NCBI GenBank assembly: GCA_008632985.1
Contig: QPGO01000212.1
Span: forward strand, 1-64,000
DNA: 64,000 bases
Source: Psammoneis japonica
Taxonomy: Eukaryota
Direction of reading: 5' to 3'
In this document: piece after piece, positions 17,858 to 54,043 of the stretch
Position numbering within the stretch: the stretch's first letter is position 1
Layout: each line of letters begins with the position of its first letter
Notes under the pieces: model-generated
What the model saw: the letters and a program-made list of their open reading frames with translations, nothing else
Database searches by the model: none
Told to the model about the DNA's origin: nothing
Position numbers and translations under genes: made by a program

Positions 17858-17949
17858 CCAGTTGGTAGTTTTAGAACACATGTAAATGCTCTCTACTCTC
17901 TACCGTACTCTAGCCCCACACCCAGCGCGAACCATGCAATCAGCTGCAT

Positions 17950-26213: not shown

Positions 26214-26272
26214 CCCACTGACATTAGTCTTGTCTCAGTGAGGAGACAATGGGCAGCATCGGAGATCCGAAG

Positions 26273-28324: not shown

Positions 28325-28502
28325 TTTTGGTCATGCACGCGCAGAAATCTGGCATGTTTCTACGACCGTGAAAAATGCCGGGAAAGCGAGATAAAAAGTT
28401 GTCTGATCAGACGATGAGGCTCGCTCAATCGGCTCACAAAACAAATGAATCGAAGTGGAAAGCTTGGCGCAGAGGTCTGTGGCACAGCGTGTGGCCACAA
28501 CC

Positions 28503-28698
28503 TGACAGAATGCCAAAGGTCAATGATGACAAAGGTGTGAAAGACTCCCCAAAGTGCCAGGACTGTGATGACACGAGTGCCAGTAGATGAGAAAGTGAGA
28601 AGCAGATCTCAGAGAGATCTGCTCGTCTGTCCAAATGGTCCAGCCATCATCCGTGTCCAGTCTGTCCATCATGCGACATGCAGATGAGTGGGCTGACA
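28503..28698 (-). repeat. 5' LTR of Copia element
   Basis: Homologous to 22847-23042. Confidence 0.92.
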
Positions 28699-29899
28699 AA
28701 CACTGTCACACCAAGAGCAGCCCAAGTCATGATGAGGAGAGTGGGGCTCAATGCCACATGCCTTGCAGGCAGGAATGAGCACATGACATGAAATCGCAAA
28801 ACTGGTGCAACTGCCACTGGCATTGATGGCATTGCTCTGGCCATCACAATCTTACGATGGCAGCCAAAGAATGCCGGGTGACAAATGATCTTGGCAACAC
28901 AACCAAATTGATGTTCGATTGCCAGCCTGTTGCTGCAGTGATGGAGGCATGTGTCCAGGTGTTGACAGTGGGCAACTGGGGCCACATCTGCATGAGAACA
29001 AGCACAGCAATTCCCATTGAATGAGAAAGAGAGAAACTGAGATTTTGTGGACAAGTGGGTTGTTGACTGCATGTGGACATGCACTGCTGTCAAACAAAAC
29101 ATTGCTCCATTTTGGCAATGGCTGAAGACGTTGGAGAGGGATGGCATCAGATGACAAGGGAAAATTGTCAATCTGGCTGTGGTTGAACAAAGAAGATAGA
29201 TTGAACAAATTTCTTGTGAACAAAAACATGTGTTCTTGGAAGCAAATTTTAAAACCACGTGGATCTGAATTTGCACCAGAAAACAAGATTGAATGGTCAA
29301 CTCAGTTTTGAAAAAAAGGCATGGAGTTGGAAGATTTTTTTTTTAACTGTGTGCAACTGCACCTGCATGTGTGAATGGCTCACAATGGGATGCAATTCAA
29401 AACAGTGGAAGATTTTGAAAAATTCAAATGTTGAGTTGCAAATGTGCACTCAAATTTGACACAAGTGCAAGTTTGAATCAATCTTGGAGAAGAGAGCAAT
29501 GGCACACTTGAGAAGATCAATGCAAAACTCATTCGCATTGTGACTTCTTGTGTCACAAACTAGAAGGAAAACAGCAAAACACCAGAACCGCCACATGGGG
29601 CAGGAAAGAAAATGGCAGAGTCAGTTGTCACATGTGCAAGATGGTGGGAGCGTGATGTCAAGCGGCAAGTGAGGTTGGAGGGCAGAAGAGTGAACAACAG
29701 CAGTTGTGACATTTGGCTGTGGCTGGCCGTTTTTGCATTCTCCACAGTTGCCATGAGCCCGACTGTGGCAGGACTTTTCAGCACACAAACCAACAAGCAT
29801 GGGGAACTCAACCAACTCCAGTTAGCCAGCAGAGACTCAAGTTTGGTTGTGACTCCAATGGAGGGATTTCATGCATTGGATTGAGCTCCAGCAGTTGGA

Positions 29900-30760
29900 C
29901 AGAAATTGATGGGGTTGATGTTGATGAAGGTGGTCAATGAAAGTGTGTGGTGGTGTTGCAAGTTCACAGTCTTTGACAAGAAACCAGCTGCAGGAGGAGT
30001 GCACATGAAGTTGGTCACACAGGAGTTGAGGAGCATGGCATCTTTGCTGGAGGCATTCTGGGATGAATGCAAAGAGGTGTTCAGGGAAAAACTCAACCAC
30101 AAAAGGAACAATGTGCAGGACAATGTAAGGAGGAGGATGACAGGTGAGCAAAAAAGTGCAGGCATTTGCCAGTCATGTGCGGGATTGTCTGACAAGTTGA
30201 GCATCAAATCCTTTGTTTTTGTCAATGCAGTTGCTGCTTTGGAGGGGTGACTGTTTTGGCATGAAGATGTGATCAAGGGCAGGGTGGACAAAGAAACGTG
30301 CAAGTGGTTCTTGGAAACGGTGGTGCCGACTGTGGTGGGCCAAGCGCATCTTGGCAGAAGCACAACAGATTTGCTCGGAGAGTGGCTCACCCTGTCATTG
30401 GAGGCCTTTGCTCTGCTGGCACACTTGGGCTGCTGTGACAGGGTGGTCGACACAGCAGTGCAGCTGGAGAATGATGATGATTGCCAGGCACAGAAAGCTG
30501 ACAGCAGAAGATGCCAAACCAGCAAAGTCGACGGTGCAGAAAGAGGGGGAGTTGGCCAAGAGGAGCCAAGGATGGAGCAAGGGTGGAATCAACAAGTGCA
30601 ATGAACTGCATGGGTGGGAGGCAAAAACAGAAAGGAGAACAAAGGATTCAGTGTGTGATTCAAGGAATGGAGGGGACAGAAGGCAAGCTTGTCACAGGAG
30701 GCAGAGAAGAAGCACAAGAGAGAGGAGAAGAGGGAGGAGAGAGAGGGTGGATGGGCCACT
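29900..30760 (+). pseudogene. Decayed ORF, probably TE-associated
   Basis: Protein-like fragments KWFLETVVPTVVG...LTLSLEAFALL and QGWSKGGINKCNEL across frameshifts. Family not established. Confidence 0.3.
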
Positions 30761-31189
30761 CTGATGGGAGAGGACCTGCCCTTGCAGCCAGTGGCAGCCA
30801 GCAATGGTGCAGAAGTAATTGCAGCCATGGCAACAAACCAAACTGGTGTGTGAACGTAAATTGCAGCAAACAACCAAGTCCAGATTAAGACAAAAAAAAG
30901 AGGCAAACTGCAAGGCAACTGGCAGTCAATGACAAACGGCAGTTGCAAAATTTGCTTTTAATGCAACAAGGCAAGGAAACAAAATGCAGAAAGAAGTTGC
31001 GGGTGCAGAGGGTGGATTGCAGGTGGAAAGAGATGTGATGAAGGTGCAAGGAACAGCAAATGATGAAATGGGTTGAGAACAAAATTGTGGGCAAGAATGT
31101 TCATGCTTCAAGGTGGGGTGGAAAACAGAATCCAGAAGCTTGTAAACTCAATTAGTTTTCAACTGGCATTTGAGGGAAGACTTGGCTCA

Positions 31190-32300
31190 TGAGCCCACAA
31201 TTGTCTGGGGTTGGAGTCAAGAAATGTCCAGACAGTGACAGGCGGTCAGACCCAGATTGTTGGTGTCCCAGATGGAGTGGCACTCCTGATCCAAGTGCAA
31301 TGACAGAAAGCACATGGCCAAAACTTGATTGGCACAAACCATGGGCCAGCTCTGATGAGCATTGCCTGGATGGCATGCCAAACATCATGTTCAAAAAGTC
31401 TTTGCACTGCTGCTGGATTTCTGTGCGGTTCGCCACCTTGATCCACAAACACATGTTTGTCTTGACATTTTGGCAAGTGGTCTTCCAAAAATCAGCAAAT
31501 CCATTTAATCTGAGTGGCCTTGGAGATGCAAACAGAACCATGGAGATGATGAGTGCAGTGGTCATGCAAGAGAATCCAACAAGTCTTGCAGTTGAGGCCA
31601 ACACAACCTGCAACACATTCTTCATTCTTTGACTTGACACCAGAGAATGTGAAGTCCACCATGAAACCTTGGCAGGGCTGAGTTGCAGTGTGTGTGAAGT
31701 TGAGACCAGCAGGGCACTTTGTCTGTTTTGCTTGAATGCAAGTGGGGCAAGTGTCCAAAGGAGAAGTGCCGTGAGTGAACTTTGGAATGCCCTTGAAGTG
31801 CTTGCCAGAATTGCACAGGCAATGATTGCTGGGACGGCCAAGACGTTGACACCAAAGTGAGCATTCTGCACCAGCCTTGAGGGCTGGTCCAGCACTTGAT
31901 CATTGAAGTGAGTCTCAAAGGGGGTGTCTTGACATGCAGGGGATGCCCTGCCGTTCATCAAATGACGTGCAACAACCAAACTGTGCCAAGCACTTGCACC
32001 TGTCAGTGCAAGTTCAAATGATGTCGACATGCATGGGGACAGTGTTGTGGTGACAAGAAAACTCAAATGCCTTTGATGGCAAGAATGACATGATTTGCAT
32101 CACTGCACATTGTGACAGAGCCAAGCATTGTGGACAAACTCTGTTTTTGGCACCTGTTGTTTTGAGCAACACAAGTGCATGCACACAGAATTCTGCAGTG
32201 CGACCCTGGCACACTGTCTGTCTGGCATCTCCAAGAGTCCATGAGGCAACCCGGGCATGTGGAGCAAGCACAGTGTGGTCAGTGCACAGACTCACGATGG
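31190..32300 (-). mobile_element. Older Copia integrase remnant related to the 22847-28698 element
   Basis: DTCPTCIQAKQTK...VDFTFSGVKSKN...VFVDQGGE...KFWP parallels the pol at 24.5-25.6 kb but is more decayed. Confidence 0.8.
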
Positions 32301-32990
32301 AGAGTGATTCAACTCAATGACATTTGTCGAAAGTCCAAAGCACCTTGCTGCCACAGCCACAGTTGCTGAATCATTGCTCACCCACTCATCCTTTGGAATT
32401 GAGAAAAACAAGCAAACAACAGCCAGTCTGACCCAAACTCCACATTGTTCACTTTACGACAACCGCAGCATTGCTTCATTCATTTGAGTCAAAAATGTCA
32501 AATGACAACAATGGCAGCACAGCACTGGCAGACAGTGCTCCAACTCATCACACTGACAACAGAGCACCCCCGCCACAGTTGGCATTTGTGTTGGGTAATC
32601 ATCATGGTGTCTGAAGCTGTGTTTGCAAGAATTCACGTGGAGAGTTTCCCCAAACAGGAAGAGCACATGACCTCCACATTTTGCTAAAGCTGGCTGAGCT
32701 GTGCAGCCTTTGAGAGACCAAGATGTGCCTGGCATGTGGTTGCAGTGGAAGCGAGCAAAAGACAATGAGCTTCCATGCCTTCCTGAGTGCCAGCAACCAG
32801 CAACACATGTGAGCTGCAGCTTGAAAAAGACCACATGGGACCTTGGTGCAAGTGCCTTGCAGCCGATTGGCACCACCAAGAGACAATCAAGCAACAGGGC
32901 ATGTTGTCTGCCAAAGAGCAGCCATCAATGCCAAAAGAGTCAGAAGAGCATGTGGCGTGAGAGCTCTGCTTTGACAGCACTCTGTGGAAG

Positions 32991-35900
32991 AAGCTGTGGA
33001 GCAATCCACCATCCCACGCCTTGATGGCAAGCCAGCCCTCTTGTCTTGTTGCCCCTCATCCCCCCTGGATTCATGCACCAGCTGCAGATCCCACTTGCAG
33101 CTGCACAAGGACACCAACTGGGAGTGTCAGATGCTGCTGCTGCTTGGGTGCAGCAGCATCAGCAGCCAGTGCCCTGAGCATGGTGGTGCAGGCTGGCGGT
33201 GTGTGTGTCCAGGGAAATGCCAGCACCAGCTCCCGTGACAACAAAGCCAACACCAGCTCCAGAGGCAATGCTGCCAGCAACCACAATGAGGGCAATGCCA
33301 ACCCCAACGATGGACCTGGCAACAGCTCTTGCAGCCAAAGCACTGCTGCTGCCAACTCACGCAGCAGCCATGACAACTCTCACAGCAGCAGCAACAGCGG
33401 CAGCAGCAGCGGTGCCAGAGCCAAATGTGGGTTGCCAGTTTCTGGAGCCACATGAGTGCTCTGCAATGCCCTCACAGTGTTTGCGAAATGTGGCAAAGTT
33501 CACGTTCATCCAGTTGCCATTTTTAGCCTGGACACTGTGAACGAACAGCTTGGTGAGAAAACTCACACAAGTGAACATGGTCACTTTGTCATCTGGACTC
33601 TGAATCAAGCTGCAAAGAATTGCAGCATTGCATCTGGTTTGCTCCATCTGTGGCAAGCGTTTGGCCCTCCATTGCTGCCGCCACCATTGAATGCGATCAT
33701 TTTTGAGACTGCAGTGCTCCACACAAACTTTTGTGGTGACACATGTGCCCAACTGCCCAAACTTCATTTCTGCTTTTTTTGTTCTGCCGACACCTGAACG
33801 ATTTTTTCTTTGCCAAATTCATTTGGATGGGTGGCGGGTCCTGCACCACGGTTCTTCCAGTCATTGATGTCTCCTTTTATGACTTGCTGCTGTTCTTCCT
33901 TTTCTTGTTTTCTGCCACCTCCCTTGCCTTTGCTTCCTTCTCCTCCTTCTCCTTCTTCCTCTCCTCTGCTGCAATTTTCTTCCTCCTTGCATTTTTTTCA
34001 CCTTTTCTGCTGCGCCATCTCCTTGCACCTCCTGGCATCCACCTTTGTGTGGCAATCCGGCATGTCTTGAACAGCTCCTTTCATCACAGCCCTTTTTGGT
34101 GGTTTTGATGGGGTTTTCATGGCGTGGCTGAAACTTTGGCAGCAGCCACAGCATTTGAAGGGTTGTCACAATCTTGATTTGCAAACTCCGCTTCAGAGGA
34201 TGAGGAATCAAAATCCACACTTAACTTCTTTTTGTTTGCATCACTTCTCTTCACATGTGTGGGCTTGATGTTTTTGCTGCTGTTGCTGTTGTTTCTGCTT
34301 TGAAAGAATCCATCATCTGAGTCAGATTCACTCTGCGACACTGCCAATGATTCAATGCTGGGCTCCGTGTTTTTGGTGTCCTCTTCTGCCTGGTGCTCTG
34401 GATGCACAGCGGACAGTTCCTCTTCAGCTGCTTCATTGTTTGCCTGCCCCCCCTGATGCTTGTCATTCCCCTCTGACTTTCTGTCTTTGTAAGAAGTTGC
34501 TTTGTTGTCTGGTGGCTTGCCGTTGTCCCCCTCGCCCCCCTCATCAGAAGAATCTTTCTTCTGTTGCTTTGTCATCATCATCTTCATTGTTGTTGTTGTC
34601 ATTGGTTTCCTCGTTGTCCTCCTCCAGTGCCTCCTCCTCCTCCTCCTTCTTTTTCTTCTATTCATCTTCCTTCTCTTCCTTGTTCTCTTCCTTTCCATGA
34701 CACACAGTGGGGTCACTCGCTGCATCCTTGCAGTCTTGTTGTGTGCCCCCATCTTCATGCTGCAGATGTCCCAAAGGGTTGGGGTCAGGGTCAGGGTCAG
34801 GGTCAGGGTTGTGGGTTGGGGTTCAGGCAGTGGGCAAAGGCCAAAAGGCAAGGCCAAAGCAAAAGCAAAGCTAAGAAGGGAAAAGGAAATGGGAAAGGGG
34901 AAATGGGAATGAAATGCAAAACTGAAATCAGATGCAAAATAAATTTTGGTGAATGTTTGTAAAAATGAAAGAGAGAAATAAAATGCAGAAATGAAATGCA
35001 CTGTGATTGATGCAGATGGAGATTGCAGCAAAGCAAGCAAGGAAGACACTTCAGAGAGGAGCTGACAAGTGTGAAACAACAGAAGAGTTGTCGTTGGTTT
35101 GAAGGATGGCGTTGTTGAGCTGCTGTTGGTTGGTGTCACCAAATGTTTCCATGGCTTGATGACAGAAAGCCAGAGCTTTACAGCGTTCCTGATTGAGTGG
35201 CTCAGGAATGACATCATCCAGGCAGATGAAAAGCCTGAAGTGATGGAAGTGATTGAGGAATCTCATGCCAAGCTCAGCTGTGGTGACAGAGCTTGCTTCT
35301 TCTGGAGAGATCCCAATGGAGAGACTGGTGTGAAAGAGATCTTCAAGGTGTGCTGAGTTTTCAGATCCAACAGAGAAGCTGTCCAGGGCGTCCAACTCTG
35401 CGATGTCACCATGAAATTGACCAGAGACAAAATTGCTGAGGGATGAAGCAGGGAAGAAGTGCCCTGCAGGGCCATGAAGGAAGTTTGTCTCAGTGTTTCC
35501 AATGAGAGATGACCTGATGACAGAACAAGGAATGGAGTGGACCACTCCCTGTTTGCAGGTTTCAAGACAAAGCTCGAATGGAAAGTCATGCTTCAAAGGG
35601 TGTTTTGCTTCAGACTGCCAAAATGAATGAAAGAAAGCAAAGAGCTTGGCTTTGGAAGAAGAGTGTGGGCAAAGCTTTCTCTGTTTCTTGCAGAGCTTGC
35701 TGAAGCAAGAGGAGCAATTTTTCCTCATCTTCCTGTCCCACCCAACAGTGTGGACACAATCCATCCATGACATGGAAGATGTTGGTGGCCATGGCTGTTG
35801 TTGTTGCCTCAGTGTCCTGAGAGAGAAAAATGCAGAAGTGAGGGTGAGCTGGAAATGTGGGTGTGTGCATCTGACAGTTTTATCCTTTTCGTGCTGTGTT

Positions 35901-36983
35901 TTGTTCTTTCCATGTTGCTCGGAGTGCAGCTTTGCTTCTCAAGGTGGCATCACGGGCGTGCCACCCACTCAGCCTTTTTGCGCCACTGTGAATGCATTGA
36001 CAGGATCTGGTGGGACTGTTGTGGGCCTCCTGCAGACAATCAGGGAAACCAGTCCTCGACTGCTCCTTTGGGTGTTGAAGTTGCAAACAGTGTGCCGTTG
36101 CCAGTTGACGATTGCTCTGGTGGAACCAGTGCTGGAGGAAGTGCACCCCAGTGAGCAGACAATGGTGTTGGCAAGTGTTGTTGCAAGGCATTCTGCCACT
36201 GTGCCAGATTGCACCACCACGGGGGCTGTTGTTGTTTTTGCACCACAAGGAATCAGAACCAAGACAGACCAAGGTCACGTTGTTGTTTTTGCACCAGCTG
36301 CAACGTTGCAGAATGAGAAAAAACAGACCTGGAGGTTTTGTGAAATGATGGTTTTACAGCTCGCTTGCAGCAGTTGCGACTGAAGATTTTAGATTGCTGT
36401 GATTGCAGAGTTGTTGCTTCTTGAGTTGAAGGAGCAGGCCCACAACTTCCACCACCACCAACTTTTCGTGGAGCCTTTTGCACTTCAAGCTCTTCTCTGC
36501 CAAAATTCCTTGCTGGTGCTCTCCGAATTCAATGGCGCCAAAGTGACTGGAAGATGGATCTCAATGTGATGTCCTCATTGGGGGCACAAACAACTTCACC
36601 ATTGCATTGTCAGCATTGGCCAGCAAAGTTGAAAGGTCTTTCTTTGATCCAAATGCTGGAATTGTGCCCTTTGACTGCAATGGTGGCTTTCCTGCAAAGA
36701 GAATTTGACGAGCACACACAGAAGAACTTTTGTCGCTTTCAACCAGCCCACTTGCAACTTGCAACAGCAGATGGCACTCCAACAAAGTCCTTGCTTTTTT
36801 GTGCAGGTTTGAATTCCAACACACCGTCATTTCAGGTGCTGATTTCTGAAGTGCCCAATCTTGTGAGATGATTGTCCCACTGTCTTGCACGACATTCTCC
36901 AAAGCACCTGATCTTGCAAGATGATTGTCATCTCACTGTCCCACGCACTGTGCCCTCACTGTCCCGTGCATTGTTTGGAACGG
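32991..36983 (+). repeat. ~4.0 kb direct duplication, left copy
   Basis: aagctgtggagcaatcc...tgtttggaacgg is near-identical to 41529-45522, and the ORF track repeats at an offset of ~8538. Confidence 0.95.
34775..34821 (+). repeat. Degenerate telomere-like (TTAGGG)n tract (also at 43313-43359)
   Basis: aggg TTGGGG TCAGGG TCAGGG TCAGGG TCAGGG TTGTGGG TTGGGG; each hexamer is one transition from TTAGGG. Confidence 0.65.
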
Positions 36984-37432
36984 CCCGTTTGAGTTTTTTT
37001 GTTTTGCATTTTGAGTTCATTCACTTGCGCACTTGCCACAGTAGAGTGTGCTTCTATGTCTGACAGCAGCAACATCAACTCGCTCTTTCTCCAACACCGT
37101 TGGAGTTTTTTTTTTTTTTGAGTTGATGATGCCTCACTCATTCTCATGCGCGCTTCGCGCGCATTCGAGATCCATGATCCACACGATTAACTCACCATGC
37201 GCACCGCGCACGGGTGGATCTTTCTGATGCGGCTTTTTCAACGCCTGTGACGTCAGCTGCGACGACAGCCGTAGAAAAATGCCGATTTCGAATTTTTTAG
37301 CTCGAAAAACAGCCGACAACACTGATGAAGCGAAAGCAAAAGCTCACATCATCGAGCTTTGTATGTCAGGCAACTCTCAATAGATTGCTGTTACGCTGAA
37401 GGCTGTCAGCACATCAGACAACCCCGAAAACA
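36984..37432 (+). repeat. 5' pseudo-LTR
   Basis: Matches 41014-41455. Confidence 0.92.
37312..37371 (+). ncRNA. Hammerhead ribozyme, 5' copy with mutated core (GAAA to AAAA)
   Basis: Same fold as 41335-41394, but reads gcaaaagc instead of gcgaaagc. Confidence 0.6.
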
Positions 37433-37452
37433 GTGTGCACAGACTTCCAACA

Positions 37453-38916
37453 ATGACCACAGCCAGCGCGTCCGCTCCGACAACCCCACCTGCTCGCAAC
37501 AGACGAAACAACGCAGCCGCACGCACCGTGCGATTCGCCACCGCAGCAGCAGCGACAATGACGGCGCCTGCGGCGCCGTCAACGGCGCCTTCGGCGCCAC
37601 AGATCTTGGCAGCTAACCAACGTAAGTTGGACAAACTAGCCCCTTGTCGCGAAGCGATCGAGACGCAGCTAACAGGATTCAAGGACATTGTCGAGTCACT
37701 AGCCACTCGTGTGATCACTCAGTGCGGGCTTGTAAAGAGCAGAAAGCCAAGTCTGTCGGCTTTCCCCGGCACTGATGACAATCCACACATCCCCAAATGT
37801 TGCAGGCTCAATGTGAACCTCACACATGCGGACCGGCTCAACGATGATGCCACTGCCCAAGAGCTCGTCCAGGAGATGAAAGACCTGGTTGCATGCTTCG
37901 AAAAGGATGCAGCCAAACTCGCACACAAGATGGCCTCACGTGAACTTGAGGTTGTGAAAACCAACCGAGTGCGAGAATTGGTCGAAGCTAGCCTTGTTCT
38001 CTTCCAATTCTACATTGACCATGTAAAAGAGTTCAAAGGCTCTACAGACCTAACAACGCGTCAACTCAGTGGAGTGCTGCTCATGCCCCACTTGTGCGAC
38101 GTGCTGCCATCGAGCTTCCTGAGAGACTGCCTTGAGACTTCTCCCAAAGAAATCATCAAGGAAGTTGAACGCCAGCTTCGACATGAAGGACCCTTCAGTC
38201 CCGAAGACAGCACCCCTCCCTCAACTCAAGAGAGCACCGAAGACAGCACCCCTCCCTCAACTCAAGAGAGCACCGAAGACGTGCACACACAAGAGGACAC
38301 CACGCGCACTCAGGCCGCACTGGCAGCAAACTTGAACCCCCTGCTCGAAAGTGAACACGTGAACCACGAACTTTCAACAGGTGAGAAAGTTGCAAAAGAA
38401 GAAGTGTTCAAGGAAATGAAACAGTTCTATGAACAAGTCACCATGCAATTGCAACACGCCCTGGACAAAGAAGAACGATTGAAATCGGTCAACGCCAAGC
38501 TGGGGGCAAAGTGGAAACGCCACAAGAAGGAACAAGCAGCTGACCTCGTCGCAACAGCTCTTGAAAACGAACCGACAGTTCAATCCCCCGCCCTCGACGA
38601 GTTGATCAACAAAAAGATTGACAAAAAAGTCGCAAGCCTCAAAAAGCTCCACAAGAAGGTAAACCGTCGGCAAAAAAACGACAAGGGCGGTCGGGAAGCC
38701 CCACCGGCACGAAAGAACGACGCAGCAAAAGACAACGAAACGCAAAAAGGAAAAGGAAAGCGGAAACGCCAACCCCAAGCCTCGAAGACGAATGGGAAAC
38801 CATCCGCCAAGAGACAAAAGAACGAAGCCAAGAACCGCCACAGAAAAAGAAAAGGGAATCACGGAGGACAGCACAGAGGCGAGCAAAGAGGCAAGAGAAG
38901 CAACAGGCGAAACTAG
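37453..38916 (+). CDS. ORF1 of Penelope-like element (coiled-coil, basic C-terminus)
   Basis: Long ORF with helical/heptad character and a K/R-rich tail; contains a 36 bp tandem repeat (EDSTPPSTQEST x2) at ~38203-38280. Confidence 0.75.
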   Translation: MTTASASAPTTPPARNRRNNAAARTVRFATAAAATMTAPAAPSTAPSAPQILAANQRKLDKLAPCREAIETQLTGFKDIVESLATRVITQCGLVKSRKPSLSAFPGTDDNPHIPKCCRLNVNLTHADRLNDDATAQELVQEMKDLVACFEKDAAKLAHKMASRELEVVKTNRVRELVEASLVLFQFYIDHVKEFKGSTDLTTRQLSGVLLMPHLCDVLPSSFLRDCLETSPKEIIKEVERQLRHEGPFSPEDSTPPSTQESTEDSTPPSTQESTEDVHTQEDTTRTQAALAANLNPLLESEHVNHELSTGEKVAKEEVFKEMKQFYEQVTMQLQHALDKEERLKSVNAKLGAKWKRHKKEQAADLVATALENEPTVQSPALDELINKKIDKKVASLKKLHKKVNRRQKNDKGGREAPPARKNDAAKDNETQKGKGKRKRQPQASKTNGKPSAKRQKNEAKNRHRKRKGNHGGQHRGEQRGKRSNRRN

Positions 38917-39059
38917 AGGCGAAACTCCTCTACCAACGCACCGAGCTCCCCATCAAAATTGCCGAGAAACAATCGGACCGCTGCTGCGTCAGAATCCATG
39001 GATTCACACCAAATCCTGATGCCCCCCTGTGGGAAAACGTAGCAACGGCTATCGGCAAG

Positions 39060-40931
39060 ATGAAAGCTACGGCATGCTTCAACCGCCTGGACAACATGTC
39101 TTACCACAACCTCTGTACAAAGCTGCAACCACCCCCGGGTACTGGATTACTGTTAGGACTTGGACACAAGTTTTGTATAGAATCAAGCACCCCGTTCCCA
39201 CACAACCGCCGAGGCGCACAACGCTTCCGACGAACCATACGTCTACGGAACTTTGTCGAGAACTCCGAACTCGTAAACGACGAAGACGGATACAACCCAC
39301 ACCTATACGTCCCCTCTGATTTCGACCCTCCACCGATTGAAGACGGGACAATAGAACTTCGAATGATGGACTTCGCAAACAAGATAGACAGAGCCAGTCG
39401 AACAGCCAACCGCCAACGACCCCGCTTTAATTTGACGCCTCAGCAGTATCGAACGCTGCGAACATTGCAAAACGACAGACGATTCGTCGTGTGTCTTACG
39501 GACAAGAATCTTGGTCCAGCCATCATGGAGCGCGAAGTATACATGAAACGGGCCCTCAGCGACCACCTGCTCAACCAGAAGAACTACCAACGCCACACGG
39601 AACAAGAAAAGAACACATTTATGAGAGCAACTAGAAGACGCCTACGCAACGCATACGACCTTGCAGCCGACAGCCTCTCTGAAGCGGAAAAAACTTACTT
39701 CGAAAGAAGTTTCAAAAAGAAACACCGCATACCACAGTTCTGCATCACTCCGAAAGTCCACAAAAAACCGTGGACGACACGACCAACAGTGAGCTGCATC
39801 AACAGTGAAAATGAAGTGTTTTCAAAATGGTTAGATTTCAAAATGAAAGAACTTCTACCCCCATCGCGAACGTACATCCGAGACTCTCACCAAGTCCTCG
39901 CCGACTTACGATCACTTGGAAAGCTGCCACCAGATGCTAAGCTATTCACAGTCGATGCAGTAGGAATGTGTGCCAATATCAACACCAACCATGCTCTGGA
40001 AACATTCCACCGGTGGTTCCTTGAGTACCCCGATGAGATACCAAAAAACTTCCCAGTTGACTTCTTCCTCACCGCACTGGAAATCGTCATGACAAGAAAC
40101 ATCATCCAGTTTGACGATACCTGCTGGCTCCAAATCGATGGTACAGCCATGGGAACCAGCACAGCCTGTATGTACGCCACCATGTACAAGGCTCTCCACG
40201 AACGCCAAAGTGTGCTAACCCGATTCAACTTGAACCTGCCCTATTATGGACGATTCATAGATGACGTACTCGGCGTATGGACAGGCGGTGAAGGTGAAAC
40301 ATGGGAGAAGTTCAAACATGAACTGAATAACTTCGGCACCTTGGAATGGGAAACCTCCGAGCTCAGTGACCAAGTTGTATTTCTGGATCTCGATATCAAG
40401 ATTGGAGCAAACCGGTGTGTTGAAACAAGAACGTACCAGAAGGCCATGAACCTGTACCTCTACATACCCCCAAGCTCAGCACATCCACCTGGAGTACTGA
40501 GAAGTATTGTGTATGGAAACCTTCGGACGTATCGGGCACAAAATCCAAACAACAAGGATTACCAAAAAACAGTGGCCCAGCTCTTCAACCGGCTGATAGC
40601 GCGAGGCCACAACAGAGAGTACCTCAAGAACCTCTTTGTGGATGCAGCCGCCACTGTCCACCGGAAAAAGGCCCCACGCTCCAATGTCGCTGACCCATCC
40701 AACACTCTTTTCTTTCACCAAGAGTATCACCCACGCGGGATAGCTCGCACTGAAATAAGAAGAGCGTATAAAAAAACCTGCGAAGGGCACAGCGGGTTCA
40801 ACCGGTTAGCAGTGGCGCACTCAAGACCCAAAAATCTAAGAGACGCCCTTATACGAACACCACTAAAGGAACCCAACAGGCAGCGTGCTTCAGATATTAT
40901 TAAAAAACTCTCTGATACACCGGAGCTCTGA
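39060..40931 (+). CDS. Penelope-type reverse transcriptase (no endonuclease domain)
   Basis: LGLGHKF, TDKNLG, PKVHK...RP, DAVGMCANI, QIDGTAMG, RFIDD, FLDLDI, YQK, SAHP and terminal RPKNLRDAL. The ORF stops ~25 aa later without GIY-YIG. Confidence 0.92.
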   Translation: MKATACFNRLDNMSYHNLCTKLQPPPGTGLLLGLGHKFCIESSTPFPHNRRGAQRFRRTIRLRNFVENSELVNDEDGYNPHLYVPSDFDPPPIEDGTIELRMMDFANKIDRASRTANRQRPRFNLTPQQYRTLRTLQNDRRFVVCLTDKNLGPAIMEREVYMKRALSDHLLNQKNYQRHTEQEKNTFMRATRRRLRNAYDLAADSLSEAEKTYFERSFKKKHRIPQFCITPKVHKKPWTTRPTVSCINSENEVFSKWLDFKMKELLPPSRTYIRDSHQVLADLRSLGKLPPDAKLFTVDAVGMCANINTNHALETFHRWFLEYPDEIPKNFPVDFFLTALEIVMTRNIIQFDDTCWLQIDGTAMGTSTACMYATMYKALHERQSVLTRFNLNLPYYGRFIDDVLGVWTGGEGETWEKFKHELNNFGTLEWETSELSDQVVFLDLDIKIGANRCVETRTYQKAMNLYLYIPPSSAHPPGVLRSIVYGNLRTYRAQNPNNKDYQKTVAQLFNRLIARGHNREYLKNLFVDAAATVHRKKAPRSNVADPSNTLFFHQEYHPRGIARTEIRRAYKKTCEGHSGFNRLAVAHSRPKNLRDALIRTPLKEPNRQRASDIIKKLSDTPEL

Positions 40932-41013
40932 TTCGGCGACTCCGTCGCGACGAGTCACCTCCGGTAAAAAACTCAAACGGGCCACCTGCCGCGCCACGGC
41001 GCTACGGCTTACG

Positions 41014-41455
41014 CCCGTTTTGAGTTTTTTTGTTTTATATTTTGAGTTTATTCACTTGCGTACTTACTACAGTAGAGTATGCTTCTATATCTGACAGCAG
41101 CAACATCAACTCGCTCTTTCTCCAACACCGTTGGAGTTTTTTGAGTTGATGATGCCTCACTCATTCTCATGCGCGCTTCGCGCGCATTCGAGATCTATGA
41201 TCCACACGATTAACTCACCATGCGCACCGCGCACGGGTGGATCTTTCTGATGCGGCTTTTTCAACGCCTGTAACGTCAGCTGCGACGACAGCCGTAGAAA
41301 AATGCCGATTTCGAATTTTTTAGCTCGAAAAACAGCCGACAACACTGATGAAGCGAAAGCGAAAGCTCACATCATCGAGCTTTGTATGTCAGGCAACTCT
41401 TGATAGATTGCTGTTACGCCAAAGGCTGTTGGTACATTAGACAACCCCGAAAACA
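41014..41455 (+). repeat. 3' pseudo-LTR, followed by a partial tandem copy at 41457-41530
   Basis: Matches 36984-37432; the last ~73 bp are repeated in tandem. Confidence 0.92.
41335..41394 (+). ncRNA. Type I hammerhead ribozyme
   Basis: gccgacaaca-CTGATGA-a-GC gaaa GC-GAAA-GCTC acatcatc GAGC-TT-tgtatgtcaggc. Core boxes are conserved, stems II and III pair perfectly, and stem I pairs with two bulged A. Predicted cleavage is after 41382. Confidence 0.8.
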
Positions 41456-41528
41456 ATGTATGTCAGGCAACTCTTAATAGATTGCTGTTACGCTAAAGGC
41501 TGTTGGCACATTAGACAACCCCGAAAAC

Positions 41529-44500
41529 AAGCTGTGGAGCAATCCACCATCCCACGCCTTGATGGCAAGCCAGCCCTCTTGTCTTGTTGCCCCTCATCCC
41601 CCCCTGGATTTTTGCGCCAGCTGCAGATCCCACTTGCAGCTGCACAAGGACACCAACTGGGAGTGTCAGATGCTGCTGCTGCTTGGGTGCAGCAGCATCA
41701 GCAGCCAGTGCCCTGAGCATGGTGGTGCAGGCTGGCGGTGTGTGTGTCCAGGGAAATGCCAGCACCAGCTCCCGTGACAACAAAGCCAACACCAGCTCCA
41801 GAGGCAATGCTGCCAGCAACCACAATGAGGGCAATGCCAACCCCAACGATGGACCTGGCAACAGCTCTTGCAGCCAAAGCACTGCTGCTGCCAACTCACG
41901 CAGCAGCCATGACAACTCTCACAGCAGCAGCAACAGCGGCAGCAGCAGCGGTGCCAGAGCCAAATGTGGGTTGCCAGTTTCTGGAGCCACATGAGTGCTC
42001 TGCAATGCCCTCACAGTGTTTGCGAAATGTGGCAAAGTTCACGTTCATCCAGTTGCCATTTTTAGCCTGGACACTGTGAACGAACAGCTTGGTGAGAAAA
42101 CTCACACAAGTGAACATGGTCACTTTGTCGTCTGGACTCTGAATCAAGCTGCAAAGAATTGCAGCATTGCATCTGGTTTGCTCCATCTGTGGCAAGCGTT
42201 TGGCCCTCCATTGCTGCCGCCACCATTGAATGCGATCATTTTTGAGACTGCAGTGCTCCACACAAACTTTTGTGGTGACACATGTGCCCAACTGCCCAAA
42301 CTTCATTTCTGCTTTTTTGTTCTGCCGACACCTGAACGATTTTTTCTTTGCCAAATTCATTTGGATGGGTGGCGGGTCCTGCACCACGGTTCTTCCAGTC
42401 ATTGATGTCTCCTTTTATGACTTGCTGCTGTTCTTCCTTTTCTTGTTTTCTGCCACCTCCCTTGCCTTTGCTTCCTTCTCCTCCTTCTCCTTCTTCCTCT
42501 CCTCTGCTGCAATTTTCTTCCTCCTTGCATTTTTTTCACCTTTTCTGCTGCGCCATCTCCTTGCACCTCCTGGCATCCACCTTTGTGTGGCAATCCGGCA
42601 TGTCTTGAACAGCTCCTTTCATCACAGCCCTTTTTGGTGGTTTTGATGGGGTTTTCATGGCTCGGCTGAAACTTTGGCAGCAGCCACAGCATTTGAAGGG
42701 TTGTCACAATCTTGATTTGCAAACTCCGCTTCAGAGGATGAGGAATCAAAATCCACACTTAACTTCTTTTTGTTTGCATCACTTCTCTTCACATGTGTGG
42801 GCTTGATGTTTTTGCTGCTGTTGCTGTTGTTTCTGCTTTGAAAGAATCCATCATCTGAGTCAGATTCACTCTGCGACACTGCCAATGATTCAATGCTGGG
42901 CTCCGTGTTTTTGGTGTCCTCTTCTGCCTGGTGCTCTGGATGCACAGCGGACAGTTCCTCTTCAGCTGCTTCATTGTTTGCCTGCCCCCCCTGATGCTTG
43001 TCATTCCCCTCTGACTTTCTGTCTTTGTAAGAAGTTGCTTTGTTGTCTGGTGGCTTGCCGTTGTCCCCCTCGCCCCCCTCATCAGAAGAATCTTTCTTCT
43101 GTTGCTTTGTCATCATCATCTTCATTGTTGTTGTTGTCATTGGTTTCCTCGTTGTCCTCCTCCAGTGCCTCCTCCTCCTCCTCCTTCTTTTTCTTCTATT
43201 CATCTTCCTTCTCTTCCTTGTTCTCTTCCTTTCCATGACACACAGTGGGGTCACTCGCTGCATCCTTGCAGTCTTGTTGTGTGCCCCCATCTTCATGCTG
43301 CAGATGTCCCAAAGGGTTGGGGTCAGGGTCAGGGTCAGGGTCAGGGTTGTGGGTTGGGGTTCAGGCAGTGGGCAAAGGCCAAAAGGCAAGGCCAAAGCAA
43401 AAGCAAAGCTAAGAAGGGAAAAGGAAATGGGAAAGGGGAAATGGGAATGAAATGCAAAACTGAAATCAGATGCAAAATAAATTTTGGTGAATGTTTGTAA
43501 AAATGAAAGAGAGAAATAAAATGCAGAAATGAAATGCACTGTGATTGATGCAGATGGAGATTGCAGCAAAGCAAGCAAGGAAGACACTTCAGAGAGGAGC
43601 TGACAAGTGTGAAACAACAGAAGAGTTGTCGTTGGTTTGAAGGATGGCGTTGTTGAGCTGCTGTTGGTTGGTGTCACCAAATGTTTCCATGGCTTGATGA
43701 CAGAAAGCCAGAGCTTTACAGCGTTCCTGATTGAGTGGCTCAGGAATGACATCATCCAGGCAGATGAAAAGCCTGAAGTGATGGAAGTGATTGAGGAATC
43801 TCATGCCAAGCTCAGCTGTGGTGACAGAGCTTGCTTCTTCTGGAGAGATCCCAATGGAGAGACTGGTGTGAAAGAGATCTTCAAGGTGTGCTGAGTTTTC
43901 AGATCCAACAGAGAAGCTGTCCAGGGCGTCCAACTCTGCGATGTCACCATGAAATTGACCAGAGACAAAATTGCTGAGGGATGAAGCAGGGAAGAAGTGC
44001 CCTGCAGGGCCATGAAGGAAGTTTGTCTCAGTGTTTCCAATGAGAGATGACCTGATGACAGAACAAGGAATGGAGTGGACCACTCCCTGTTTGCAGGTTT
44101 CAAGACAAAGCTCGAATGGAAAGTCATGCTTCAAAGGGTGTTTTGCTTCAGACTGCCAAAATGAATGAAAGAAAGCAAAGAGCTTGGCTTTGGAAGAAGA
44201 GTGTGGGCAAAGCTTTCTCTGTTTCTTGCAGAGCTTGCTGAAGCAAGAGGAGCAATTTTTCCTCATCTTCCTGTCCCACCCAACAGTGTGGACACAATCC
44301 ATCCATGACATGGAAGATGTTGGTGGCCATGGCTGTTGTTGTTGCCTCAGTGTCCTGAGAGAGAAAAATGCAGAAGTGAGGGTGAGCTGGAAATGTGGGT
44401 GTGTGCATCTGACAGTTTTATCCTTTTCGTGCTGTGTTTTGTTCTTTCCATGTTGCTCGGAGTGCAGCTTTGCTTCTCAAGGTGGCATCACGGGCGTGCC

Positions 44501-45522
44501 ACCCACTCAGCCTTTTTGTGCCACTGTGAATGCATTGACAGGATCTGGTGGGACTGTTGTGGGGCCTCCTGCAGACAATCAGGGAAACCAGTCCTCGACT
44601 GCTCCTTTGGGTGTTGAAGTTGCAAACAGTGTGCCGTTGCCAGTTGACGATTGCTCTGGTGGAACCAGTGCTGGAGGAAGTGCACCCCAGTGAGCAGACA
44701 ATGGTGTTGGCAAGTGTTGTTGCAAGGCATTCTGCCACTGTGCCAGATTGCACCACCACGGGGGCTGTTGTTGTTTTTGCACCACAAGGAATCAGAACCA
44801 AGACAGACCAAGGTCACGTTGTTGTTTTTGCACCAGCTGCAACGTTGCAGAATGAGAAAAAACAGACCTGGAGGTTTTGTGAAATGATGGTTTTACAGCT
44901 CGCTTGCAGCAGTTGCGACTGAAGATTTTAGATTGCTGTGATTGCAGAGTTGTTGCTTCTTGAGTTGAAGGAGCAGGCCCACAACTTCCACCACCACCAA
45001 CTTTTCGTGGAGCCTTTTGCACTTCAAGCTCTTCTCTGCCAAAATTCCTTGCTGGTGCTCTCCGAATTCAATGGCGCCAAAGTGACTGGAAGATGGATCT
45101 CAATGTGATGTCCTCATTGGGGGCACAAACAACTTCACCATTGCATTGTCAGCATTGGCCAGCAAAGTTGAAAGGTCTTTCTTTGATCCAAATGCTGGAA
45201 TTGTGCCCTTTGACTGCAATGGTGGCTTTCCTGCAAAGAGAATTTGACGAGCACACACAGAAGAACTTTTGTCGCTTTCAACCAGCCCACTTGCAACTTG
45301 CAACAGCAGATGGCACTCCAACAAAGTCCTTGCTTTTTTGTGCAGGTTTGAATTCCAACACACCGTCATTTCAGGTGCTGATTTCTGAAGTGCCCAATCT
45401 TGTGAGATGATTGTCCCACTGTCTTGCACGACATTCTCCAAAGCACCTGATCTTGCAAGATGATTGTCATCTCACTGTCCCACGCACTGTGCCCTCACTG
45501 TCCCGTGCATTGTTTGGAACGG
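41529..45522 (+). repeat. ~4.0 kb direct duplication, right copy
   Basis: Near-identical to 32991-36983. Confidence 0.95.
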
Positions 45523-47111
45523 TTGCAACCATGTTGGACAAAATGGGCAGACGCGTGTCAAGAGCAGTTGGCCCTGTGGCTGGCATCTTTTTCACTTCTT
45601 TCAGAAAGGAAAGAAAGTCAGATTGTGCTGGCGTGCAAGCACGGTGGTGCAAGATGAGCATCATTGGATTGCTGCTGAGCTCACCCCTCCAATCTGATGG
45701 AGGACAACCCCACGCTGTTGGAAAAGCATGCGCTTTGCTCACAAGTCAAGTTGCTCTGGAGATGATTGCCAAGTTTCACAAAAAAGGAAAGCCTCGCTGC
45801 TTTGTGAGCTCAGAGGCTGACAACCCCATTTTGGCTTGGAATCAGTTTTTGAACAAATTTGGCTTTGCAGGGTGAGGCGCTGGCTTTGAAGTCTTCTTTG
45901 ACGTGGACAGAGCTGTGCCCTGGGTGGGTGTGGCATGGAAAAATGTCCCGCCCAGATCAACAGGCTGGGCTTCTTCAAGACAAGCTGTGTTTTTTTTCTG
46001 CTTGGGTCAGGGTTGGAACACCCACACCTCAGCAACTGGGAGAAGACCTCAACAGTTGCAGCTTCACAAGATGGAGCATTAAAAACTTCCCGCTCCTTCC
46101 ATCCAGAGGTTCCTTGGGGAGTGCCACAATGTTGCAGCATGCATGTTCACTGGGAAAGTGCACTGGCCTCCACAGGACCTGTTTCTGTTTCCCCTGTTGA
46201 TTGCTGCATCCAACAATCAAAGTTGTCACAACTCAACAATGCAGTTTTTGGCTTGGATGAGGAGAAAACAACGAGGGAACAACAAAACCTCTGAGCCCGA
46301 CATCATGTGCCCCAAACCAATCTCAACTGTGCACAGACACCATGTGTCACTCTGATTGCTGGTCACCAATTCAAACTTGAACCATTCAAACCAATGTGCA
46401 CTTGTTCACTTCACCCCCTCACCACAGACTTCTGACAAGGGACAACACTCATGGCAACAGTCACATTCAATCTCTCTGTTGTCGGAACAGTCAGCCACAG
46501 TGCAGGTCAATTGGTGCTCGGTTCCTGAACAACACACTTCTGTTGGGATGTCTCTGGACAAGTTGTTGTTGTAAAATGTAAACTCGTGCAGCTCCAACAG
46601 CTCACCAAAGCTTCCCGTTAACTTGTTTTCATGAATTCACAGTTCTTTCAGTGATGCCAAATTGCCAATGGCATGAGGCAATGATCCTGAAAGCCAAAAA
46701 TTGGCCCCCAGCTAGATTCATCTGTTGGAGGGAGGAGATCTCACCGCAGAGGGGTGGGATGGTGGATTCAAACTGATTTCCATCCAGATGCAAGCTTTCC
46801 AACGAGCTGAGCAGCACCGTGCGTGGAAGAGATGAATGGAACTGGTTGTTGCTCAGCTGGATCCCTTTGAGTTCACGCAATGCATCAAACTTGTCTGGGA
46901 CGGTTCCGGCAAAGTTGTTTCCAGCCAATGAAAACATCTCCAAAAAGAGCAAGTGAAAATTGTCATCAGAACAGCTGAGTTGAGGCAGTTGTTTGACAAG
47001 TCAAGGTGCTTGAGCTCTGCAAGATGCCCAATGCTGGATGTGGTGTGAAGGAGACATGTGTAAGGAAAGAACAGGGAGAAGTGAGCGCAGGATGAGCACT
47101 CATCATTTTAA

Positions 47112-51663: not shown

Positions 51664-52810
51664 TTAAGATGTGAAAGAACAAGGCACAGCTTGCCACGTT
51701 GATCGCGCACCTGACAAATGGAACATCCTGTCACCTTGTGTCAAAAAGATGTCATTTGGGTCAAACGCTGAGCTCAGTGGGCATTTGGGTGCACCTTAAC
51801 GCCACAGACAGGGCTTTCAAAGCATGGTGAAAAGCCCAGTTGGAAGGATTCGTGCAGTCAGAAATCATGCCGACCACAAAAGAGCTGGAAAAAGCTTCAT
51901 CCGCTGTTCGTTTTGAGCACCACTTAGAGCAATCCAATGGATTGGACCTTGGTGATTGCGTGTCTGTGACGAGATGATGAGATTTCACAAACACATGCGT
52001 TCGTGTTGTCGCCGCCGCAGCGACACTCTCCAGTGAATCATTCCACAACAACGTGCAAGAGCCAATGCGATGATGTCTGCCACAAACCCAATGACAAACA
52101 AAATTGCTCCCAAAAATGCAGCATTTGACTCGAGTGCTGGTCTAGTCTCCTGCGTGAAACGTCGGCTTGGCGCGGACGCGAAGCGACAGCTGCTTGCTCT
52201 CCACGTTGCTCGTGTTTTCGTTTTCGATTCTTTTTGGGATTTCCATTTGCGCCAATGTTTCCTTTTTGGTTTTTTACAAGATCTTTCCCCTTTTGTCCCA
52301 AGTGAGGACTGTGGCGACAGATTGCTCTGCCGGACATCCTTTTGCATGCTCACTGTGAGTCACTCGCTTTTTCCATGCGGCGCATGTCCGCCCATTTGTT
52401 TTGTTGTTGTGAATTTGTCACACGGAAACATTTGTTAAATCTGCTGTAAGAATCAATCCAATCATAGAAACAACTGCTCCAGGACTGTGCTGCACAAGTG
52501 AAGTGCAGCGGCCCAGCCCTTTGTTGTGGTTGTCATCGCTTCCTTCTTCCTTCGGCACAACATGAAAAGATTTTCGAAATTCCGGAGCTCGTCGTCGGCA
52601 TCATGCCGGCTTTTTTGCGTTTTGGACCGTTGCCGTAGAGCCACGTAGGAATTAGTAATAATTTGGAAAGCATCAGTGCCCACCAACTTTCTACATACGA
52701 AATCATGGTAATAGTTCTACGAAGATACACAAAAATTACAGTGATTGACAAATTTAGCAACGGTCACGACTCAAAATCTCTGAGAATCCGCGCTCGTTTT
52801 TCGCTCACAA

Positions 52811-53105
52811 CTCGTCGTCTCGCACCATGTGCTTGTTGTTTGCCAAGCCGGAATGCCGTTATCGCCAAGGATGGCTCGCCCTTCCTCTGGCTTGAGACCT
52901 TGCATTTGTTTGGCATTCCACAACTCATTTTGCTTGATGGTGTGTTGTCTCTCTTTTTCGACTCGTCGTCTCGCACGATGTGCTTGTTGTTTGCCAAGCC
53001 TGAATGCCGGAATCGCCAAGGATGGATCGCCCTTCCTCTGGGTGATAGAGACCTTGCTCTCATTTGGCATTCCACAACTCATTTAGCTTGATGGCGTGTT
53101 GTCTC
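52811..53105 (+). repeat. Tandem duplication (~145 bp x2)
   Basis: ctcgtcgtctcgcac...gcttgatgg(t/c)gtgttgtctc at 52811-52951 and 52961-53105. Confidence 0.8.
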
Positions 53106-54043
53106 AAATGGCAGCGTAGGTGTTGCCAGTTAAGTCCGGAGGTCGGGGCAAATCGAATGCGTGTCTCCGGCCTGGAGTCCATGTTACTCCTGTGTCTTTG
53201 ACCGTAGGAAGTTGCCTGTTCGCTTGACCCGTCAGGTCACGGCTGTTGAAACAGACAGCAGCATTCGCCTGTGAAGCAGCAAAAGCTCGCCAAGCAGATC
53301 ACACCGTTGACGGAACGCGGGGTTTGGGGTTCCGTCGTATCAGTGACGTGGTGCGGTAAGTCTTCACTCGTAGGGAGTGTTGATTTAGCACGCGGTTGAC
53401 TCGCAAGTTTCTCTTGCTGTCTCCGTAGTACGTCCCCCCTTTTTCATTTTTTGGGATGGTTTTCCACCCCAAAAATAGGAAAAAGCTTGAGCTCCATCAT
53501 TTGATGGTGCTCTTGAGGCAATGTTATCCTACGCGACCAATTTCTATCAACTTTTGATGTTGGCGTGTTTCAGATATTCGAAACACACTTTGAACTTTTA
53601 CAATAGAGAAGTAGAAAGACTAAAAGTACCAGATAGCAATCTATATTTGCGTGTAATTTATTCCGTGCGCATGTCAATGGACTACGATGGCGGTCGTAGC
53701 ATGTTCTCGTTCTCGGCCCTCGTGCTCCATCGTCACGTCAAACACAAGGATTGTGGCGTACAGTACAGCGTACACCGGAGATTTTCAGTCACGTCGCGCT
53801 TGTGTGCCTTGTAAGATAAGGTGTCACCAGAACGCTTTGTTTCGACAGAGTCTGTCAGAAGTAATTTGTCCGAAGAATGGACAGGTGTATCATCCTCGAT
53901 TGGATAGAGTGGTTGACCGTTCATATAGCAAAACACAACACAACCTAGAAATTAATCGTATGCATCCGAAGCCTTCATTCTACTAAGCATGTAGAGGTGC
54001 CAATCAGGACTCTTAACTCATGAGCGCGTGTGCACCACTGCCC

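Follow-up and report, generated by a model that had tools for sequence, protein, structure and literature searches.

As far as we know, no cellular process with a specific mutational action at TpA in the direction of G:C had been described before 2026. In mutation-accumulation lines of Bigelowiella natans, according to the accessible part of a preprint (bioRxiv 10.64898/2026.01.13.699255), 231 of the 302 nuclear point mutations fell in integrated giant-virus and virophage regions, and the mutations in the viral regions were almost all A-to-G or T-to-C changes, all of these on TpA, at a rate of about 6e-7 per site per generation as against 3.5e-10 elsewhere. The same text reports that the hypermutation was confined to some lines, that TpA-poor coding sequences of B. 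natans are enriched for reverse-transcriptase and DDE domains and that its TpA-poor 1-kb windows form 124 clusters, and it proposes an ADAT2 homologue as the enzyme, as yet unproven (bioRxiv 10.64898/2026.01.13.699255). This was the sole relevant work found in the literature on TpA-directed hypermutation. The present analysis concerns a stretch of 64,000 nt from Psammoneis japonica (assembly GCA_008632985.1, contig QPGO01000212.1, positions 1 to 64,000 of the forward strand; hereafter the window), in which the terminal repeats of a Penelope-like retroelement differ from each other almost exclusively at TpA. An earlier note on this DNA had taken such a process to be undescribed, a view which has been overtaken by the TpA-specific A-to-G/T-to-C hypermutation and the ADAT2-like deaminase set out in the accessible text of the preprint, and the window thus offers a new instance, and a much stronger one, of a process that had been described in a preprint just months before.

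Substitutions between the terminal repeats and their direction

The element carries a 5' terminal repeat or pseudo-long terminal repeat (pseudo-LTR), termed L1 (36984..37436), a 3' terminal repeat L2 (41013..41459) and, in tandem with the latter, a partial third copy L3 of 74 nt (41457..41530), all on the forward strand. L1 is depleted of TA, with 8 such dinucleotides and an observed/expected ratio (o/e) for TpA of 0.25, whereas L2 has retained 20 (o/e 0.60). A self-BLAST alignment of L1 (36983-37436) with L2 (41013-41459) spans 455 columns, of which 93.6% are identical, and contains 20 mismatches and 2 gap openings; in the alignments the 20 mismatched bases form 16 runs and are transitions in 20 of 20 cases, there being no purine/pyrimidine mismatch at all. 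Twelve of them have TA in L2 and TG or CA in L1 (L1 positions 37006, 37007, 37018, 37030, 37035, 37037, 37048, 37058, 37173, 37249, 37410 and 37415), and six more bases make up three TG-versus-CA doublets (37378, 37397 and 37407), which brings the differences of the TA/TG/CA type to 18 of 20; the other two are a CA/CG difference at 37338 and the final base of the repeat at 37433. Of the three doublets, two are TA in L3, L1 and L2 having CA/TG at one of them and TG/CA at the other, and L3 does indeed give polarity as the earlier note had held. The count given there, of about 15 TpA substitutions and one at CpG in the 5' copy, is likewise borne out by 15 TA-type sites and one CpG in L1, and every substitution quoted as an example is present in the alignment.

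The probability that at least 12 of 20 differences would fall within TA, which takes up 9% of the bases of L2, is 1.8e-8, and a chance origin of the pattern is excluded. The one-sided TA changes are furthermore distributed 12:0, L1 being the loser and L2 the keeper (p = 5e-4), and the outcomes in L1, 5 TG and 7 CA, are interleaved. The CpG dinucleotides of the repeats are intact (29 in L1 and 30 in L2, CpG o/e 1.2-1.3), and expressed as hits per site per copy the pair gives about 0.39 for TA, 0.017 for CpG and 0.0015 for other sites.

Six independent lines of evidence agree that TA came first and that TG/CA derives from it. The element has a cysteine codon, TGC, at 39741..39743 (forward strand) where 60 of 60 homologues have tyrosine, and at 39969..39974 (forward strand) a cysteine TGT, tyrosine in 100% of homologues, is followed by an alanine GCC, threonine in 90% of them, which fits a change of TATA to TGTG. 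In the contigs of a public DNA sequencing run (run X1), in which several sister copies are collapsed, position 39742 is A, so that TAC is restored. The summed contig depth in this run, 70-108 over the initial 250 nt of L1, amounts to 689-740 on the L2 version, a rough measure with one depth per contig, and since it is about tenfold greater on the L2 version the majority of the family looks like L2. Tyrosine is likewise scarce in the transposon-derived open reading frames (ORFs) of the window: it makes up 0.2% of the Copia-like ORFs, with a (Cys+His)/Tyr ratio of 55-68, and 0-0.4% when other transposon ORFs are included (ratio 19-68), as against 2.2-3.5% in host ORFs (ratio 1.2-1.7). Among 80 related reverse-transcriptase (RT) loci from metagenomes the TpA o/e is 0.62-1.13 with a median of 0.815, and TA poverty is therefore no trait of the element family. 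Finally, the 4-kb direct repeat that flanks the element (A, 32988..36983, on its 5' side, and A', 41526..45522, on its 3' side) contains a telomere-like array, TTGGGG(TCAGGG)4, at 34779..34808 on the forward strand, with a twin in A' at 43317-43346, and each unit of it is one TA-to-TG or TA-to-CA step away from TTAGGG, the canonical telomere unit. The direction from TpA to TpG/CpA that had been claimed for this DNA is thus supported by the tyrosine-to-cysteine codons, the TAC of the sister copies, the scarcity of tyrosine and the metagenomic relatives.

The changes have moreover been made on DNA and on both strands, as the earlier note had stated. A direct repeat flanks Copia-like gag/integrase remnants (first copy 22834..23042, second copy 28489..28698), and its copies are 100% identical in purine/pyrimidine space over 197 nt; 9 of the 14 mismatch runs between them are TG-versus-CA doublets, each of which would mean that one ancestral dinucleotide, either TA or CG, was changed on opposite strands after integration. 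Family copies in run X1 differ from the window by 52 A>G, 51 T>C, 53 C>T and 35 G>A changes and 21 transversions, transitions thus accounting for 191 of the 212 variant places, and among the difference rows listed (40 of 227) 33 are switches among TA, TG, CA and CG, with 5 CA-TG doublets included. Since both strands are changed equally (5 TG and 7 CA in L1; 52 A>G and 51 T>C in the run), editing of one RNA strand cannot explain the pattern. It should be mentioned that the sequencing evidence consists of contigs of one sample, possibly the assembly's own source, and so represents no independent platform.

Compartments, sequence context and relation to CpG loss

The results on compartments and gene blocks hold within the one window of 64,000 nt. 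Taken as a whole it has a TpA o/e of 0.28 and TG/CA at 1.46-1.48, and its composition is a mosaic. The sliding TpA o/e along the window, proposed in the earlier note as a check, resolves this mosaic into TA-poor compartments of 0.09 and TA-normal ones of 0.59, with edges that are sharp at 200-bp resolution. The TA-poor compartments comprise 1..10000 (1-kb TpA o/e 0.02-0.23), 18201..38800 with Copia-like remnants as well as A, L1 and the first ORF of the element (ORF1), 41601..47000 with A' and beyond, and 56201..58400 with a Copia-like RVT_2 remnant; in total they cover 38.2 kb and have CA/TG at 1.60, CpG at 0.49 and a G+C content of 0.50, as against CA/TG at 1.20 and CpG at 0.96 in the 18.9 kb of TA-normal compartments. 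TpA is ordinary in two gene blocks, at 10001..18200 (o/e 0.46-0.72), which holds an FTO-like and a Cupin_8 ORF, and at 52601..56000, where an FGGY kinase ORF runs without interruption (54047-55927, minus strand). Non-ORF DNA inside the gene blocks has a TpA o/e of 0.72, and host ORFs have 0.40-0.98 with all three codon phases alike.

In the older transposon DNA around the element the TpA o/e is 0.00-0.15, and the depleted ORFs that Pfam identifies are transposon-derived, namely Copia-like gag/integrase and RVT_2 remnants. A piggyBac-like DNA-transposon ORF (49487-50752), which lies outside the TA-poor intervals, is moderately depleted (o/e 0.36). The effect is not specific to the three terminal-repeat copies, since it reaches 38.2 kb of transposon DNA of several classes, and the dependence on repeats supposed in the earlier note finds no support so far, A and A', which are 99.7% identical, being unchanged at the 13 TAs left in them. 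The window counts 320 TAA, 257 TAG and 1471 TGA triplets, and with TAA and TAG almost absent from TA-poor DNA, long spurious ORFs are found there in all six frames; ORFs of at least 150 codons number 79 in the 64 kb.

The loss of TA depends on its neighbours. Survival of TA, taken as TA-poor relative to TA-normal compartments and hence approximate since the reference is gene DNA, is 0.01 for ATAT, 0.03 for ATAC/GTAT, 0.07 for GTAC and for ATAG/CTAT, 0.13 for ATAA/TTAT, 0.17 for GTAA/TTAC, 0.18 for CTAC/GTAG, 0.26 for CTAA/TTAG and 0.38 for CTAG and for TTAA. Loss is thus greatest at RTAY and least at YTAR (R, purine; Y, pyrimidine). As to which strand was changed in relation to the flanks, two models stand at 4:3 over the 7 informative L2-to-L1 events. 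A polymerase-eta WA signature is ruled out, AA being without depletion (o/e 1.21).

TpA correlates with CA/TG across 1-kb windows at r = -0.81, and TA loss correlates with CpG loss at r = 0.75. The two losses are nonetheless separable: in 15 of 64 windows TpA is under 0.25 while CpG is 0.6 or higher, in none of the 64 is TpA above 0.45 when CpG is below 0.5, and TA loss thus precedes CpG loss or runs faster. When the 5% cut-offs of the B. natans preprint are applied, the TpA o/e of 45 of 64 windows does not exceed 0.43, and CA/TG reaches at least 1.52 in 28 of those. The judgement of the earlier note that neither repeat-induced point mutation (RIP) nor CpG decay is at work in the repeats is in agreement with a TpA o/e of 0.09, with the intact CpGs of the repeats and with a polarity opposite to that of RIP.

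Some further observations may be added on the compartments. Positions 1-7000 have a TpA o/e of 0.04-0.23 yet near-normal CpG (0.72-0.96), and the C-terminus of an ORF at 4125-5378 recalls tyrosine recombinases, an assignment that is presumed by us and had neither Pfam support nor confirmation by any tool. Two Copia-like pieces (24716-25186 and 31413-31883) match over 471 nt at 87% in purine/pyrimidine space, as against 117 nt at 78% in ordinary BLAST, from which transitions probably mask most of the pair; apart from this pair, purine/pyrimidine-space self-comparison of the window gave no large hidden repeats beyond those of BLAST. The FTO-like ORF is uninterrupted (14033-15901, minus strand; FTO_NTD E = 4e-80 plus FTO_CTD) and adjoins the Cupin_8 (JmjC-like) ORF, the two spanning 13166-15901 on the minus strand; both are of nucleic-acid/chromatin dioxygenase type and lie in the TA-normal block. 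A dinoflagellate spliced-leader motif had no match in the window.

The retroelement and its flanking repeats

By self-comparison the order is A (32988-36983), L1 (36984-37436), the internal part of the element (37437-41012), L2 (41013-41459), L3 (41457-41530) and A' (41526-45522). The internal part carries two overlapping ORFs on the forward strand: ORF1 of 510 codons (37384..38916; TpA o/e 0.20, tyrosine 0.4%), without Pfam match, and a reverse-transcriptase ORF of 769 codons (38622..40931; TpA o/e 0.63), the overlap being 295 nt in different frames (38622-38916). TA content rises stepwise inside the element at about 38.9-39.0 kb. Neither ORF has a Pfam-A domain at E up to 1, the GIY-YIG endonuclease included, and a sequence search of the RT ORF against the PDB gave no match. 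A protein search gave 666 relatives with E up to 0.001 among 8000 candidates scored, the best being 55-57% identical, and a model of the RT with a predicted local distance difference test score (pLDDT) of 83.3, built with 30 aligned sequences, has the fold nearest to telomerase RT, its 8 best PDB structural matches all being telomerase RTs (E 7e-9 to 9e-8). D294-K295-N296, a DKG-type motif upstream of the RT core, is invariant across the 30 aligned sequences; the available text on Penelope-like elements gives DKA, DKT and DK as variants of this motif and has pseudo-LTRs arise as partial tandem copies (PMC8557442). The arrangement of L1 and L2 as direct repeats of about 450 nt with the 74-nt tandem L3 is of the Penelope type. 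The designation as a Penelope pseudo-LTR made earlier is therefore reasonable, and likewise the label Penelope-like for the element, on the basis of the predicted telomerase-like RT fold, the D-K-N motif and the partial-tandem repeats, and a missing endonuclease domain would fit the endonuclease-less Penelope clades.

No second copy of the element was found in the window by tblastn of its proteins. In an Rfam search the window as a whole yielded no family that reached the gathering score, and on 40950-41600 no hammerhead appeared when matches with E up to 1 were admitted. A string resembling a hammerhead core, CTGATGA...GAAA, a string match only, occurs in both terminal repeats (37320-37337 and 41343-41360), and it is directly followed by the one difference at CpG that separates L1 from L2 (37338). 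An inverted repeat capable of forming a hairpin extends from the internal part into L2 (40967-41030); it surfaced through a weak and surely spurious Rfam match (E = 0.079).

The retroelement is positioned exactly between A and A', as though its insertion had duplicated a 4-kb target, and one may speculate that such a duplication could arise when an element without endonuclease joins a break which is afterwards healed by copying. A has a TpA o/e of 0.05 (13 TA, none of them RTAY) and a CpG o/e of 0.24, and these 13 TAs recur in A' with identical contexts and in identical order; the two copies are 99.7% identical over 3998 columns with 8 mismatches in 6 runs, none of which is at one of the only 13 TAs that remain, and their hits per site per copy are 0.026 for CpG and 0.0004 for other sites. 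TA changes thus number 0 of 13 between A and A' as against 12 of 20 from L2 to L1 (p = 5e-4). The claim that the changes were made after insertion is unproven for L1 versus L2, and its best case is the repeat pair flanking the Copia-like remnants.

Origin of the depletion and comparison with known systems

The best explanation, and as a whole a likely one, is a DNA-level process that would turn 5'-TA-3' into TG or CA, that is, A-to-G on either strand, orders of magnitude faster than the background in transposon-derived compartments, gene blocks being spared. The three terminal repeats would then represent an early stage, with 15 TAs lost in L1 and kept in L2 and/or L3, and the older transposon DNA would represent the end state. 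That TA is the target of a process leading to TG and CA we regard as very probable. As for its chemistry, we suggest more tentatively that adenine may be deaminated to hypoxanthine, which is read as G; the enzyme might be a deaminase derived from the tRNA adenosine deaminases (ADAT2/TadA-like) that would be recruited to silenced mobile DNA and act episodically. The target of tRNA adenosine deaminases, A34, always follows U33, and most eukaryotic tRNA substrates of ADAT have UAG or UAA contexts.

Several points weigh against this explanation. The hot flanks seen here, with a pyrimidine after A or, equivalently, a purine before T, differ from the UAG/UAA contexts of ADAT, and the absence of a deaminase Pfam domain from the ORFs scanned, 71 of the 79 in the window with 150 codons or more, agrees with the earlier view that the enzyme cannot be identified in the window. 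All evidence is a footprint, no mutation event having been observed, and it is drawn from a single window. Furthermore, the 3' 2.5 kb of the element are barely touched though they abut TA-free DNA, and the TA poverty of ORF1 is largely common to sister copies (5 differences over a contig of 277 nt and 3 over one of 402 nt) and hence inherited rather than acquired at this locus. The unchanged TAs of A and A' finally mean that either the residual TAs are refractory, or conversion homogenises A and A', or the changes of L1 predate insertion.

This last possibility leads to the notion that the differences between L1 and L2 were made elsewhere, L1, perhaps together with ORF1, having been copied from an already hypermutated template and L2 from a clean one. 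Such a history is doubtful but to be taken seriously, since pseudo-LTRs are partial tandem copies in the available text of PMC8557442, since all 12 of 12 one-sided changes are in L1, and since the TA step inside the element, the lack of any TA change between A and A' and the ORF1 TA poverty common to sister copies would all be accommodated. It is in poorer agreement with the derived TG/CA that L2 and L3 also hold in the three doublets, with the depth on the first 250 nt of L1 (70-108), which is close to that of the flanks (56-68), and with the Copia-like pair, in which change in place does occur in this genome; in any event it alters the history of the three copies, not the existence of the process. 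Rather unlikely, in turn, is a chemistry acting on the T of TpA or by way of repair, be it a thymine modification (hydroxymethyluracil or of base-J type) that mispairs with G or a bias in T:G-directed repair by which replication errors at TA would become fixed. TA is self-complementary, so that A-to-G and T-to-C are indistinguishable from sequence, and the flanks do not predict the changed strand over the 7 informative events; but the window holds no positive evidence for such a chemistry, the AA o/e of 1.21 is contrary to errors of polymerase-eta type at WA, and the known adenosine deaminases prefer U on the 5' side, according to work cited in the accessible text of the preprint (bioRxiv 10.64898/2026.01.13.699255). 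A uniform genome-wide bias against TA, with old neutral DNA at equilibrium and genes and young insertions that only seem spared, would find some agreement in the lowish TpA of the host ORFs and in the correlation of TA and CpG loss, which age predicts. It is however made improbable by the 0.72 of non-ORF DNA in gene blocks and by the likeness of the host codon phases, which together make it unlikely that such a bias is held back by selection, as well as by compartment edges that are sharp within 200 bp and by the 15 of 64 windows that are TA-poor with CpG of at least 0.6.

The retroelement nature of the element and a preference of ADARs for 5' U, as cited in the accessible text of the preprint (bioRxiv 10.64898/2026.01.13.699255), would be compatible with adenosine-to-inosine (A-to-I) editing of retroelement RNA by an ADAR-type enzyme, fixed by reverse transcription. 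As sole cause this is already contradicted, and altogether it is very improbable, given that both strands are changed equally, that the Copia-flanking repeats diverged by TG-versus-CA doublets and that a DNA-transposon ORF and a telomere-like array are also affected. Likewise already contradicted, and scarcely credible, is the reverse polarity, in which RIP-like C-to-T change at CpA/TpG or CpG decay with two hits would have made the TAs. The L1/L2 pattern is by itself symmetric and decayed CpGs also give TG-versus-CA doublets, but TpA is about tenfold depleted rather than enriched, the tyrosine-to-cysteine evidence points the opposite way, the repeats have kept their CpGs, just one of the 20 differences falling on such a site, and relatives elsewhere have normal TpA. 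Base modifications can give systematic miscalls on some long-read platforms, and modified bases at TA might thus have been miscalled in sequencing or assembly. There is however hardly any reason to believe in such an artefact, since the TA-free flanks (36500-36983, 484 nt, and 41529-41887, 359 nt) match the contigs with 0 differences at a depth of 56-68, albeit in a run that may be the assembly's source, and since the contigs vary among family copies in the same manner.

If a targeted process at TA is accepted, the window displays its long-term effect on ordinary transposons: TpA is nearly eliminated, tyrosine codons have become cysteine and histidine codons, TAA and TAG are lost and frames are open in six phases. 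Hypermutated DNA of this kind defeats homology-based annotation of transposons, most of the depleted ORFs being without Pfam match, and a TpA o/e below 0.15 together with CA/TG above 1.6, beside normal genes, may serve as a signature in screening other genomes. The findings point to a natural DNA A-to-G editor. It is possible, although we say so with reserve, that this is the second organism besides B. natans with a transposon-directed defence by DNA adenine editing, one that has erased more than 90% of TpA from every mobile class, prefers RTAY, is bounded by chromatin domains rather than based on homology, and has a retroelement co-evolving with it in that spreading copies carry a TA-poor ORF1. 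If so, such a reversed form of RIP would be a widespread genome defence of protists, and a natural A-to-G editor of DNA in double-strand context would exist.

Among known systems, fungal RIP is similar in that it hypermutates mobile DNA by transitions at particular dinucleotides, so that the DNA is ruined and compartments with a skewed composition are left behind. However, RIP changes CpA to TpA and raises A+T, whereas TpA o/e is 0.09 and G+C 0.50 here, and it needs duplication, whereas the 99.7%-identical A and A' are untouched in the window, though only 13 TAs remain in them. The footprints of APOBEC3 and ADAR in vertebrate retroelements likewise consist of clustered transitions of deaminase type kept in genomic copies, but these enzymes act strand-specifically on cDNA or RNA during retrotransposition, whereas both strands, integrated repeat pairs and a DNA-transposon ORF are affected here. 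Methyl-CpG decay, which is also at work in the older DNA of the window (CpG o/e 0.49), resembles the process in that a self-complementary YpR decays to TG/CA with TG-versus-CA doublets between copies; it differs in its target, is slower here (0.017-0.026 hits per site per copy as against 0.39 for TA) and can be separated from the loss of TA by the 15 windows that are TA-poor with CpG kept, the reverse being found in 0.

The closest likeness is to B. natans, and we infer that the process is of the same kind. Shared with the accessible account of that organism are near-exclusive A-to-G/T-to-C change at TpA on both strands of foreign or mobile DNA, and TpA depletion coupled to a gain of CpA+TpG in clustered 1-kb windows (bioRxiv 10.64898/2026.01.13.699255). 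The genomic settings are different, the window having uninterrupted host ORFs of 620 codons and dense transposons, whereas the available description of B. natans gives 8 introns per gene and 12.9% repeats (PMC13746701). As far as the accessible text of the preprint goes (bioRxiv 10.64898/2026.01.13.699255), the window further differs in offering a footprint where a rate was measured there, in that transposons of several classes are the targets where viral inserts were in B. natans, in the RTAY flank preference seen here, and in a depletion that is deeper, with o/e down to 0.00-0.05 as against 0.45 in their viral region and with 28 of 64 windows passing their 5% cut-offs.

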